A stretch of 42,479 nt of DNA, from IMG/VR virus record IMGVR_UViG_2939127364_000002; one strand, given 5' to 3'. This DNA is from a virus (taxonomy: Duplodnaviria > Heunggongvirae > Uroviricota > Caudoviricetes). Position numbers and translations under genes: made by a program. Shown here in pieces: positions 29,701-32,282 of the stretch (the stretch's first letter is position 1; the number at the start of each line of letters is the position of its first letter). Below the pieces are notes generated by a model. It did not search any database, was not told the origin of the DNA, and saw nothing but the letters and a program-made list of their open reading frames with translations.

Positions 29701-29956
29701 GGGCGAGGCCGGGCCTGAAGCAATCATGCCACTGACACGGGCAGCGGACGGCTCTCTTGGGGTCAGGGCCATTGGAAATGTGAATGGTGGTGGTGGATTT
29801 GTTTATTCTCCCGTGTATCACATCAGCATTCAGAATCAAGGGAGCAATGGCGAGATAGATGCGCGCTCAGCCAGGGGACTGGTGGATCTGATCGACAGCA
29901 GGGTTGTGTCAATTATGCAGTCATCGCGTCGGGATGGAGGATTGTACAGTGCCTGA
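26750..29956 (+). CDS. Tail tape measure protein
   Basis: 1068-aa ORF, Ala/Gln-rich and largely helical, directly after G-T. Confidence 0.9.
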   Translation: MSVATLRELIIKISANSRSFQSEISRASRMGQDYYRTMQNGGRQSAAASREMRRALAEVTDQINTAKSSALNMAGAFAGAFATGHLISLADEWNSVNARLKQASQSSDDFQVSQRELMAISQRTGTAFSDNASLFARSAASMREYGYSSEEVLKVTEAISTGLKLSGASTAEASSVITQFSQALAQGVLRGEEFNSVNENGDRVIRALAEGMGVARKDLKAMADNGKLTADKVVPALISQLGALRDEYAAMPDTVSSSATKVENAFMAWVGGANEASGVTKTLTGVLNGVADNIDTVAAAAGALVAVGVARYFGNMASSAGSATAGLITAARNEVALAEAQLRGTQIATARARAAVYRAQQAVVAARGTERQAAAEAKLTAAQASLTRNIAARTAAQTTLNTVTSVGSRLLSGALGLVGGVPGLVMLGAAAWYTMYQNQEQARESARQYAATIDEIRQKTSAMSLPEAADNEEKTRQALEEQNRLIREQEGKIRGLKNQIADYQRWLDESSQSGSGAEIILKGLAEATNQLAVEQSRLTQIQGKAQSIQDVLAGLEERRVVLIRQQAAEQNKAYQSLLIMNGQHTEFNRLLGLGNELLQQRQGLVNVPLRLPQATLDDKQQTALNNSKRELALSRLKGEARERARLGYAADDLGFVGEAYQTARQNYINNSLDAWRNNQANKPKAHKKTEAEKTEDIYKRLIKQQKEQIALAGQNTELAKMKYQVSQGELSTLSEAQKKTLLQNAALIDQKKIREQLAAYESSLADSNASARASDEAQLLGYGEGSRMRERLQEMWSIRQAFEQKNNELLRQYQAGEIEEALWKQEKELNKKYLEERLSDQQDYYAKADALRNNWNAGLQEGLTNWADSATDYASQAADAVVSTMDGLVSNISDALAGNVVDWRNWGSSVLREVSKILMNAAIVNGLKSLSGAGGWLGTVGGWISGAVANAKGGVYTSANLSAYSNTIVDTPTYFAFAKGAGLMGEAGPEAIMPLTRAADGSLGVRAIGNVNGGGGFVYSPVYHISIQNQGSNGEIDARSARGLVDLIDSRVVSIMQSSRRDGGLYSA

Positions 29957-30290
29957 GCCTGAAGTTTTTAACTGGATCCCCCGTGAGGGGATGGAGACGA
30001 CACGAAAGCCATCAGTTATTACGGTAAAGTTTGGTGACGGATATGAACAGCGACGGGCTGGTGGTCTGAATGCGGATCTGAAAACGTTTAAACCGGTATT
30101 TCGTGTCACAGATGAATATTCCCGTGCCGCGCTGGACAGTTTTTTATCCCGTCATGCCGGGATTCGTGCTTTTTTGTGGCGTCCGCCAAAACACAACAGG
30201 ACTGTCAGGGTTGTCTGCAGGGAGTGGAGCATTTCGGATAATGCCATGTATACCGATTTTAACTGTACCTTTGAAGAGGTCACTCACTGA
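29949..30290 (+). CDS. M: Minor tail protein M
   Basis: ...VKFGDGYEQRRAGGLNADLKTF... parallels lambda M; start at GTG 29949 with GGAGGA RBS. Confidence 0.85.
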   Translation: MPEPEVFNWIPREGMETTRKPSVITVKFGDGYEQRRAGGLNADLKTFKPVFRVTDEYSRAALDSFLSRHAGIRAFLWRPPKHNRTVRVVCREWSISDNAMYTDFNCTFEEVTH

Positions 30291-30988
30291 TGCAGGATAT
30301 ACAGCAGGAAACACTCAATGAGTGCACTAAAACGGAGCAATCCGCGCTGATCGTGCTCTGGGAAATTGATCTGACAGAGGTCGGCGGAGATCGTTATTTC
30401 TTCTGTAATGAGCAGAACGAAAAAGGTGAACCAGTCACCTGGCAGGGGCGGCAGTATCAGGCCTATCCCATTCAGGGAAGTGGATTTGAGATGAACGGCA
30501 AAGGAGCCAGTGCAAGGCCAACGCTGAAAGTCTCTAATCTGCACGGCATGGTCACCGGGATGGCGGAAGACCTGCAGAGTCTGGTCGGCGGAACGGTGGT
30601 CAGGCGTAAGGTTTACGCCCGTTTTCTGGATGCGGTGAACTTCGTCAACGGAAACAGTGACGCCGATCCGGAGCAGGAGGTAATCAGCCGCTGGCGCATT
30701 GAGCAGTGCAGCGAACTGAGCGCGGTCAGTGCCTCCTTTGTACTGTCCACGCCGACGGAAACGGACGGCGCTGTTTTTCCGGGCCGCATCATGCTGGCTA
30801 ATACCTGCACCTGGACCTATCGCGGTGATGAGTGCGGTTATCACGGTCCGGCGGTCGCGGATGAATATGACCAGCCGACGTCCGATATCACGAAGGATAA
30901 ATGCAGCAAATGCCTGAGTGGCTGTAAGTTTCGCAATAACGTCGGCAACTTTGGCGGCTTCCTTTCCATTAACAAACTTTCGCAGTAA
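30290..30988 (+). CDS. L: Minor tail protein L
   Basis: MQDIQQETLNECTKTEQSALIVLWEIDLTEVGG... nearly identical to lambda L as remembered. Confidence 0.9.
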   Translation: MQDIQQETLNECTKTEQSALIVLWEIDLTEVGGDRYFFCNEQNEKGEPVTWQGRQYQAYPIQGSGFEMNGKGASARPTLKVSNLHGMVTGMAEDLQSLVGGTVVRRKVYARFLDAVNFVNGNSDADPEQEVISRWRIEQCSELSAVSASFVLSTPTETDGAVFPGRIMLANTCTWTYRGDECGYHGPAVADEYDQPTSDITKDKCSKCLSGCKFRNNVGNFGGFLSINKLSQ

Positions 30989-30993
30989 ATCCC

Positions 30994-31737
30994 ATGACAC
31001 AGACAGAATCAGCGATTCTGGCGCACGCCCGGCGATGTGCGCCAGCGGAGTCGTGCGGCTTCGTGGTGAGAACGCCGGAAGGGGAAAGATATTTTCCCTG
31101 CGTGAATATCTCCGGTGAGCCGGAGGCGTATTTCCGGATGGCTCCGGAGGACTGGCTGCGGGCAGAAATGCAGGGTGAGATTGTGGCGCTGGTCCACAGT
31201 CACCCCGGTGCTCTGCCCTGGCTGAGTGAGGCCGACCGGCGGCTGCAGGTGCAGAGTGATTTGCCGTGGTGGCTGGTCTGCCGGGGGGCGATTCACAAGT
31301 TCCGCTGTGTGCCACATCTTACCGGGCGGCGCTTTGAGCACGGGGTGACGGACTGTTACACGCTGTTCCGGGATGCTTACCATCTGGCGGGAATTGAGAT
31401 GCCTGATTTTCATCGTGAGGATGACTGGTGGCGTCACGGTCAGAATCTCTATCTGGATAATATGGAGGCAACGGGGCTGTATCAGGTGCCGTTGTCAGCG
31501 GCGCAGCCGGGCGATGTGCTGCTGTGCTGTTTTGGTTCATCGGTGCCGAATCATGCCGCTATTTACTGCGGCGACGGCGAGCTGCTGCACCATATTCCTG
31601 AACAACTGAGCAAACGAGAGAGGTATACCGACAAATGGCAGCGACGCACACACTCCCTCTGGCGTCACCGGGCATGGCACGTATCTGCCTTTACGGGGAT
31701 TTGCAACGATTTGGCCGCCGCATCGACCTTCGAGTGA
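30994..31737 (+). CDS. K: Tail tip assembly protein K
   Basis: MTQTESAILAHARRCAPAESCGFVV...HSHPG... parallels lambda K; ORF overlaps the start of I by about 100 nt. Confidence 0.85.
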   Translation: MTQTESAILAHARRCAPAESCGFVVRTPEGERYFPCVNISGEPEAYFRMAPEDWLRAEMQGEIVALVHSHPGALPWLSEADRRLQVQSDLPWWLVCRGAIHKFRCVPHLTGRRFEHGVTDCYTLFRDAYHLAGIEMPDFHREDDWWRHGQNLYLDNMEATGLYQVPLSAAQPGDVLLCCFGSSVPNHAAIYCGDGELLHHIPEQLSKRERYTDKWQRRTHSLWRHRAWHVSAFTGICNDLAAASTFE

Positions 31738-32282
31738 AAACGGGGTCCGAAGCCATCCGGGCGCTGGCCATGCAGATCCCGGCGTTTCGTCAGAAACTGA
31801 GCGATGGCTGGTATCAGGTGCGCATTGCCGGGCGTGATGCAGGCGAAAACGAATTATCAGCCCGTCTTAATGAGCCGCTGAAGAATGGTGCCGTGATCCA
31901 CATCGTTCCGCGTCTTGCGGGAGCAAAAAGTGGCGGTGTGTTTCAGGCGGTGCTGGGTGCGGCGCTGATTGCAGTGGCGTGGTGGAACCCTGCAGGCTGG
32001 CTGGGAGCTGCGGCTTTATCGGGCATGTATGCTGCGGGGGCCAGTATGATCCTTGGCGGTGTGGCGCAGATGCTGGCACCGAAAGCCAGTACCGCAACAA
32101 CGACCAGCACGGATAACGGTAAGCAGAACACGTATTTCTCGTCACTGGATAACATGGTTGCCCAGGGCAATGTTCTGCCTGTTCTGTACGGTGAAATGCG
32201 CGTGGGATCACGTGTGGTTTCTCAGGAGATCAGCACGGCAGACGAAGGGGACGGTGGTCAGGTTGTGGTGATTGGTCGCTGA
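31635..32282 (+). CDS. I: Tail tip assembly protein I
   Basis: MAATHTLPLASPGMARICLYGDLQRFGRRIDLRVKTG... and C-terminus ...VSQEISTADEGDGGQVVVIGR parallel lambda I; exact start uncertain. Confidence 0.75.
   Translation: MAATHTLPLASPGMARICLYGDLQRFGRRIDLRVKTGSEAIRALAMQIPAFRQKLSDGWYQVRIAGRDAGENELSARLNEPLKNGAVIHIVPRLAGAKSGGVFQAVLGAALIAVAWWNPAGWLGAAALSGMYAAGASMILGGVAQMLAPKASTATTTSTDNGKQNTYFSSLDNMVAQGNVLPVLYGEMRVGSRVVSQEISTADEGDGGQVVVIGR

Follow-up and report, generated by a model that had tools for sequence, protein, structure and literature searches.

Module junction at the tail-tip M/L gene boundary and a conserved K/I gene overlap in an Escherichia coli lambdoid prophage

In the virion of phage lambda, gpM has a tube fold and forms a hexameric ring whose E-loops stack electrostatically on a three-fold ring made by the gpL HDI and gpJ HDII domains (PMC10721106). 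Two cryo-electron microscopy studies found only residues 134/135-222/223 of gpI in the virion, as a trimeric plug that holds the C-terminus of gpH, and gpK was found by neither (PMC10721106; PMC12617516). Iyer, Burroughs and Aravind had proposed in 2006 that K, through its JAB domain, cuts the ubiquitin-like domain off I at the C-terminal glycine of that domain (PMC1779556). Here we analysed IMG/VR record IMGVR_UViG_2939127364_000002, a stretch of 42,479 nucleotides (nt) that we call the window, which holds an entire lambdoid prophage integrated at argW in the chromosome of E. coli. We concentrate on 29949-32282, where the tail-tip genes M, L, K and I lie (features are on the plus strand unless stated). 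We hold with high confidence that this region contains a module junction between M and L, followed by a dual-coding K/I overlap that is conserved in the lambda clade.

The initial annotation had described a lambda-like tail tip and lysis cassette set in a head, tail-shaft and replication background that is not lambda-like. This mosaicism is confirmed: identity to lambda differs strongly from gene to gene, and the uniform divergence that would speak against it was not seen. A single long blastn block links window 30270-34839 to lambda 13409-18002 (4.6 kb, 92.1%). In a global alignment read in sliding windows of 90 nt, identity to lambda is 0.39-0.63 over 29700-30267, steps up at 30268-30357 from about 0.4 to 0.72-0.92, a range that holds over 30268-30540, and reaches 0.91-1.00 from 30540 to 31800. 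It is 0.40-0.68, with a 24-nt indel, over 31800-32090 and 0.74-0.82 over 32000-32180, then mostly 0.92-1.00 (minimum 0.88) up to 34790, beyond which it collapses. Per gene, nucleotide identity to lambda is 52.6% for M, 90.7% for L, 95.3% for K, 78.9% for I and 95.7% for residues 1-815 of J; amino acid (aa) identity is 25.5% for the tape measure (H), 39.5% for M, 93.6% for L, 95.2% for K (against the corrected lambda K, see below) and 79% for I. The genes L, K, I and J are thus collinear with lambda at high nucleotide identity, and M lies outside this block. Among the genes first taken for close relatives of lambda, L, K, the N-terminal part of J (1-815), S and R deserve that description, and M and Rz (48% aa) do not; I does in part, as it contains a divergent patch, and Stf does over residues 1-120 only (90.8% aa).

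Our results place the single modular junction within 29949-32282 at the M stop and L start (30284-30292; stop TGA 30288-30290, start ATG 30290-30292). Gene M (29949-30290; Pfam PF05939, 110 bits; PDB 8iyk_M, E=4.7e-24), which encodes the distal tail protein of the hexameric ring, stands on the non-lambda side. It is equally far from the M proteins of lambda (39.5% aa) and HK97 (39% aa), goes with the HK97-like module of tube, chaperone and tape-measure genes, and is contiguous with the tape measure at 93-97% nt identity in 640R1, PhiR49_2 and E. coli AB104. Gene L (30290-30988; Pfam PF05100, 334 bits; PDB 8iyk_L, E=5e-151), which encodes the tail-tip hub with its HDI and Fe-S domains, is the first gene of lambda type.

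This position is also where relatives of the window diverge. In a set of 80 IMG/VR contigs that carry the window's I allele (I at least 93% identical in aa in all of them), homology is lost at 30284-30287 in 41 and at 30353 in six; a further 22 have the window's own M and tape measure as far as the fetched locus reaches. Upstream of the same L-K-I block, M occurs in at least four alleles besides that of the window, and thus in at least five classes in all. The commonest, about 46% identical to the window's M, occupies 36 loci, the lambda type seven, and a type of about 50% identity four. Alignment of these loci shows that the stretch from 30286 (CTGATGCAGGATATA...) over the M stop and L start is common to nearly all classes, and that leftward of it they are unrelated. 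Dozens of lambda-like phages, including mEp460, cdtI, Ayreon, Tritos and lambda itself, match rightward from 30286/7 at 93-95%, and few (640R1, PhiR49_2, 689R5, 813R8, 606R7) match leftward as well. Hits in E. coli genomes mostly begin at 30286/7; in a spread sample of these genomes, the hits covering about half of the query all begin at 30284-30287, bar two at 30353. Matches that span the junction (at least 80% of 29290-31290) are present in 1650 of 5426 complete E. coli genomes, about 30%. An abrupt transition with several alternative M alleles beside one L-K-I allele is the pattern of a gene-boundary mosaic junction in the Hendrix/Juhala model, and the composite is inherited and common in E. 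coli, having been created outside the window's genome.

A breakpoint had first been expected near 29950, at the boundary of the tape measure and M, with M on the lambda side. The actual junction lies 340 nt further right: no relative or reference changes homology at 29950, and 640R1, PhiR49_2 and AB104 are continuous there. Separately, a second class of E. coli prophages, about 76% identical, matches from 29585, inside the tape measure.

Set against the lambda structure, the M/L joint would correspond to the interface between a six-fold unit of tube, distal tail protein and tape measure and a three-fold unit of hub and fibre. We infer that different shafts can accept the same tip for this reason, the six-fold M ring sitting on the three-fold L/J ring as a structural interface that would let shafts be exchanged.

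We then turn to genes K and I. The 103-nt overlap between them (31635-31737; K 30994-31737, I 31635-32282) agrees with the approximately 100 nt reported initially, and I is read in the -1 frame relative to K. One frame of the overlap encodes the C-terminal tail of K, and the other a 13-residue leader and the first strand of the ubiquitin-like domain of I. An overlap of exactly this length is found in lambda (K 14276-14875, I 14773-15444), in the PGAP annotation of AB104, and in an Stx2c phage whose I is only 60% identical in aa. That of the window lies within the best-conserved stretch of the alignment to lambda, with an identity of 0.96-0.99.

The substitution pattern among 67 unique relatives with intact frames supports coding in both frames. 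The 247 codons of K and the I ORF (open reading frame) are both open in 67 of 70 unique sequences. Inside the overlap, 11 of 34 third positions of I codons vary and only 1 of 35 third positions of K codons, compared with 111 of 213 in the part of K upstream of 31635 (Fisher p=4e-9 for the two K regions). The stretch 31635-31673 is nearly invariant, with variation at 0 of 13 K third positions versus 38 of 78 in the preceding 235 nt (Fisher p=5e-4). Variation hence switches from K to I third positions at about 31635 (Fisher tests, p=4e-9, 5e-4 and 1e-3, values that overstate independence given that the sequences are related).

The geometry of more distant relatives, which we followed in a small sample (a tblastn spread sample and eight fetched loci), is different. 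Annotated K/I overlaps are 4-26 nt in Klebsiella, Serratia, Dhillonvirus, T1-like and Burkholderia relatives, and the K stop in these lies anywhere from 11 nt ahead of the codon that aligns with I residue 14 to 14 nt past it. Unlike in the window, K of HK97 ends 18 residues earlier, without the C-terminal tail, and I lies 321 nt downstream; in a Mannheimia phage, too, a spacer lies between the two genes and contains a terminator and a small ORF. Since the lambda clade has the long overlap and its distant relatives a short one or a spacer, the K/I overlap is, judging from these alignments, a derived but old and conserved dual-coding trait of that clade and not a scar. The last 20 or so residues of K would then form a weakly constrained run-on tail whose codons overprint the beginning of the I ubiquitin-like domain. 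We mention as a speculative possibility, and not one that we favour, that a short coupling overlap was expanded to 103 nt in the lambda clade through the tail of about 20 residues in K and the 13-residue leader of I, and that this expansion is functional and not neutral. If true, the overlap might set the K:I translation ratio or hold the JAB peptidase near its nascent ubiquitin-like substrate, and a classic model phage would provide a modest new example of overprinting that serves regulation.

Several points weigh against the interpretation given so far. The 80 relatives behind the substitution analysis are all close (I at least 93% aa) and phylogenetically non-independent, and the invariance of 31635-31673 could stem partly from an RNA or ribosome-binding signal instead of coding. 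The start of I at ATG 31635 is a prediction; ATG 31674, where distant homologues start, would reduce the overlap to 64 nt, and several GenBank records place the start at GTG 31734, with an overlap of 4 nt. Cleavage of I by K, too, is a proposal. Finally, the sequence is compatible with two mechanisms for the origin of the M/L joint: illegitimate recombination on which selection then acted, or a homologous crossover within the conserved first part of L.

The alternative that survives best, unlikely as we consider it, is that I begins at the internal ATG 31674 (MARICLYG...), with an overlap of 64 nt and the 13 upstream codons untranslated. The homologues of HK97, Klebsiella KLB24 and Serratia Bonzee start at the position aligned to this ATG, and the Pfam domain PF06805 begins there too, at I residue 14, inside the overlap. 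In the Stx2c phage, however, the codon at this internal Met is CTG, while the upstream ATG and the 13-residue leader peptide (MATTNAFSLASPP) are kept as protein; the upstream ATG is therefore the sole possible start of I in that phage. The freezing of K-synonymous sites over 31635-31673 described above also speaks against an untranslated extension, and the only good Shine-Dalgarno sequence, a GAGG 11 nt upstream of ATG 31635, precedes that codon; none precedes ATG 31674 or GTG 31734.

Far less probable is that the long overlap is an annotation artefact and that I begins at GTG 31734, which forms GTGA with the K stop codon. This start is annotated in three GenBank records (640R1, PhiR49_2 and the lambda sequence PV340536), and a 4-nt overlap is the commonest coupling geometry, found also in the Burkholderia relative. 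Yet this codon is GTA in 7 of the 67 unique relatives (site 31736), and third-position variation in the I frame is already present upstream of it. Starting there would give gpI the N-terminus VKTGSEA, without the precursor segment MAATHTLPLASPGMARICLYGDLQR, and would remove the first beta-strand region of the PF06805 domain, whereas none of the I proteins of HK97, Mannheimia, Klebsiella, Serratia and Dhillonvirus starts later than the position that aligns with residue 14. We found nothing on the start of I or the N-terminus of K in the literature on gpK/NlpC and on lambda ribosome profiling. The most likely start codon of I is ATG 31635, which falls within the last part of K.

The reading suggested at the outset, with M at about 29950 as the first gene of the lambda-like block and the K/I overlap as the scar of two joined phage segments, is less probable still and is refuted by the comparisons with lambda and the relatives. 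M is indeed a homologue of lambda M by family (PF05939; 8iyk_M), and 103 nt is unusually long for an overlap in a phage late operon when distant relatives have 4-26 nt. But M is no nearer to lambda (39.5% aa, 52.6% nt) than to HK97, the identity step is at 30268-30290 and not at 29950, and the overlap is equally long in lambda, with 96-99% identity. None of the 67 unique relatives shows a homology break within it. The least credible alternative is programmed -1 frameshifting in the overlap, producing a K-I fusion as in the G/GT tail chaperones. In its favour are the -1 frame in which I is read and the report by Iyer et al. (PMC1779556) of rare prophages in which TAPI and a JAB protein are fused. 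However, the K frame of 31633-31737 contains no slippery heptamer of the form X XXY YYZ, and I is equipped with an ATG and a Shine-Dalgarno sequence of its own. In HK97 and the Mannheimia phage, K and I are unlinked, with 270-320 nt and a terminator between them, so that function does not require a fusion, and we rejected this alternative.

The product of K in the window is a protein of 247 aa with a JAB/MPN+ metallopeptidase domain (Prok-JAB, residues 3-98, 52.7 bits) and an NlpC/P60 peptidase domain (NLPC_P60, residues 111-224, 49.3 bits), as in the gpK family (TAPK) of assembly factors that are not part of the virion. The JAMM motif H68-S-H70-x7-S78-x2-D81 and the residues C121/H187 are kept in common with K of HK97. 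Compared with the window (31128 region, GAGGCGTATTTCC), the lambda reference (J02459/NC_001416) lacks one G at about 14266, reading GAGGC-TATTTCC. Its absence splits the 247-codon ORF, and as a result K is annotated in lambda as 199 aa from the internal Met49, which hides the N-terminal part of the JAB domain with a conserved Glu. The G is present in PV340536 and LC730321, two independent lambda sequences that we read directly and in which K has 247 aa, and in 40 related loci. In KT232076, the lambda imm21 and imm434 records and DE3, a 300-nt query matches over 301 nt, hence with the extra base. Lambda_2E9 (LR595860) was discarded as an independent lambda for this indel, being only 95.7% identical to lambda here and thus a recombinant. 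The 199-aa annotation therefore appears to rest on a single missing base in the reference, K of lambda really having 247 aa by comparison of these records, and the window's K is 95.2% identical in aa to this resequenced form.

Gene I encodes 215 aa (31635-32282; PDB 8iyk_I, E=8e-105) with the sequence features of the gpI family (TAPI): an N-terminal ubiquitin-like domain (PF06805 on residues 14-97, 84 bits), a Gly-rich linker and a conserved C-terminal plug domain. In alignment with I of lambda and HK97, the Gly/Lys cluster after the ubiquitin-like domain is kept (G96, K98, G101) and the C-terminal domain is nearly identical; the PDB 9e7m chains align to residues 131-214 only. K would process I, so that only the C-terminal plug domain would stay in the tail tip, by analogy with lambda; this cleavage, the hypothesis proposed by Iyer et al., is consistent with a virion gpI that lacks residues 1-133. 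Between these parts lies the patch in which the window diverges from lambda (31800-32090, I residues ~55-152), a second pair of mosaic sub-junctions. Identity to lambda is at least 0.87 on its left flank and rises from 0.74 to at least 0.96 on its right. Phages such as mEp460 and cdtI match through the patch at about 94%, carrying the window's allele. It covers the second half of the ubiquitin-like domain and the linker, the part that is discarded from virions. As placed by alignment to lambda, the true sub-junctions inside the tip block are this one in the middle of I and one in J near 34790.

Within L, all cysteines of lambda gpL are kept, including the five of the C-terminal iron-binding domain (C173, C182, C205, C208, C212), and 14 of the 15 differences from lambda L fall in residues 1-124, the N-terminal HDI half; this concentration would fit co-adaptation at the module interface. 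Moreover, the first ~65 nt of L, some 22 codons (30300-30355), come in at least three alleles whose distribution mostly follows that of particular M alleles, with exceptions to this pairing (relatives L023 and L082 vs L046). Two explanations suggest themselves: the N-terminus of gpL may be co-adapted with gpM, or crossovers may have a second preferred site near 30353. Two IMG/VR relatives (L064, 136-1885; L079) have an insertion of ~1.75 kb between L and K, at a point equivalent to window 30988-31019, which carries the genes of an antirepressor of P22 type (P22_AR_N/C) and of a divergent Arc-like repressor, that is, an immI-like cassette within the tail-tip operon.

Gene J (32343-35825; Pfam J domains), the central fibre, is of lambda type over residues 1-815 (97.2% aa, 95.7% nt) and falls to 50% aa and 61% nt from residue 816 to the end, the receptor-binding part, after the collapse at 34790. 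The N-terminal gene of the side tail fibre (36550-37578; Pfam phage_tail_N) is 90.8% identical in aa to lambda orf-401 (Stf) over residues 1-120, and its nucleotide identity to lambda, 0.80-0.94, is confined to 36370-36900. The side-fibre locus, 36550-38914, consists of two ORFs. The first (342 aa) has the Stf-like N-terminus, Ala-rich repeats and a hydrophobic C-terminus; the second starts at ATG 37595, encodes 439 aa, has its own Shine-Dalgarno sequence and a weak FGE-sulfatase-like domain (28.6 bits), and showed no counterpart in lambda, 640R1, PhiR49_2 or AB104.

To the left of the M/L junction, the tape measure (26750-29956; Pfam Phage_HK97_TLTM, TMP_3 and Tape_meas_lam_C) belongs to an HK97-like shaft, in which the connector, tube, chaperone and tape-measure genes are distantly related to those of HK97 (66-74% nt, 51-80% aa). 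Its likeness to lambda H (25.5% aa) is confined to the C-terminus. There, the last ~45 residues (29830-29956; lambda 12980-13103) are closer to the gpI-binding segment of lambda gpH than to HK97, with the motif RRDGGLYSA in the window, MRDGGLFSG in lambda and IRPGGDIWNA in HK97. Such a lambda gpH-like end fits the lambda-type I with which it would have to dock, and would fit co-adaptation at the module interface. As previously stated for the major tail protein, head and replication genes, no lambda match at E<=1e-3 was found for the head, tube or replication proteins of the window, and the tape measure was likewise rightly set apart from lambda (~26% aa, C-terminus only).

The head genes from 17583 to ~23690 (terminase, portal, protease, capsid) are 96-98% identical in nt to those of Shigella SfII, SfIV and SfI and of Salmonella 118970_sal3, and homology to the SfII-type phages ends about 120 nt past the capsid gene. 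SfII, SfIV, SfI and 118970_sal3 have contractile tails. The end of homology after the capsid gene and the tails of these relatives together indicate that one head module serves different tail types. The gene at 17584-17934 has a weak match to the HK97 HNH endonuclease, and its AB104 counterpart is annotated as an HNH endonuclease; the structural block common to the window and AB104 begins at its start, at 17585. This gene and one for a regulator of the Rha/ORF11CD3 family (16616-17170) lie between the lysis cassette and the small terminase gene. A comparison with P22 was uninformative as a guide to the tail junction, P22 having no structural-gene similarity to the window and matches that are limited to Q, part of S, the Rz1 region and short pieces of the nin and early regions.

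The early region is a patchwork with ~97% identity to HK022, HK542 and mEp506-like phages, and from the nin region through Q to lysis (11746-16557) the window forms one blastn block with HK97 at 94.8% nt. Within that block, Q (14167-14890) is 92-98% identical to lambda in nt (Q 99%), and no identity to lambda is seen over 14890-15050. The lambda-like part of the lysis cassette, ~15050-15900, comprises the region upstream of S, S itself (15225-15548; 97% aa) and most of R (15532-16008; 95% aa). Read in windows of 100 nt, identity there is 0.96-0.99 between 15143 and ~15840 and 0.87 at the edges, and it decays after 15940. The breakpoint proposed near 15200 was accordingly not found. Rz is itself mosaic: its identity to lambda decays to 47-72% nt, the protein is 48% identical in aa to lambda and 76% to HK97, and its 3′ part (16158-16457) is 93-96% identical to P22.

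The ends of the window hold the two halves of an integration module of KplE1 type, as had been recognized initially. At the left end lies a torI-like excisionase gene of 66 codons (1-201, minus strand; 1-251 are 98% identical in nt to K-12 torI). At the opposite end (40078-41471, minus strand), an intS-like integrase gene (40078-41271), whose product has integrase domains in Pfam, adjoins argW, a tRNA-Arg(CCT) gene predicted by ARAGORN at 41397-41471; 40084-42479 is 97.9% identical in nt to K-12 intS-argW-yfdC. This arrangement, with intS adjoining argW at one end and torI at the other, is that of KplE1/CPS-53.

The mosaicism described here is real, but it is textbook for lambdoid phages and known already: modular exchange at gene boundaries is the classical picture of their evolution, and the same composite already occurs among phages deposited in GenBank and in ~30% of the complete genomes of E. 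coli. For practical purposes, the exchangeable tip unit starts at L and not at M, which is useful for host-range engineering by tail-tip swaps, and I is best annotated with the long K-overlapping start, as its ubiquitin-like domain is otherwise truncated.

Compared with known systems, the window shares with KplE1/CPS-53 of K-12 the genes torI, intS and argW at ~98% nt, with integrase and excisionase at opposite ends and yfdC adjacent; CPS-53 is a cryptic remnant of 10 kb, whereas in the window the same module flanks a complete lambdoid genome of ~41 kb. With HK97 it shares the gene order of the shaft module (gp7-gp16), with head-closure, tail-completion, major tail and G/T chaperone proteins at 51-80% aa and a tape measure at 55% aa (gp16) that has the Phage_HK97_TLTM domain; in contrast, M, L, K, I and J of HK97 are only 32-39% identical in aa to those of the window. 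The phages 640R1 (ON470612) and PhiR49_2 (PV340570) and the AB104 prophage (NZ_OZ547541) are like the window at 93-97% nt through the tape measure, M, L, K, I and J, including the M/L joint, AB104 in one block over 17585-36899 (96.2%). All three differ from it in their early regions, lysis cassettes, integrases and distal fibre genes, and 640R1 and PhiR49_2 also in their head genes (break at 24120). Lambda itself (NC_001416 13429-18903; 8IYK, 9E7M) has the same order and Pfam families of L, K, I and J, the same 1-nt M/L and 103-nt K/I overlaps, and likewise the C-terminal iron-binding cysteines of gpL, the JAMM motif of K and the C-terminal plug domain of I. It differs in M, H, V and all head genes, which are unrelated or ~25-40% identical in aa, in I ~55-152, where it has another allele with an 8-aa indel, in the C-terminal receptor-binding region of J, in Lom (46%) and in Stf past residue 120.

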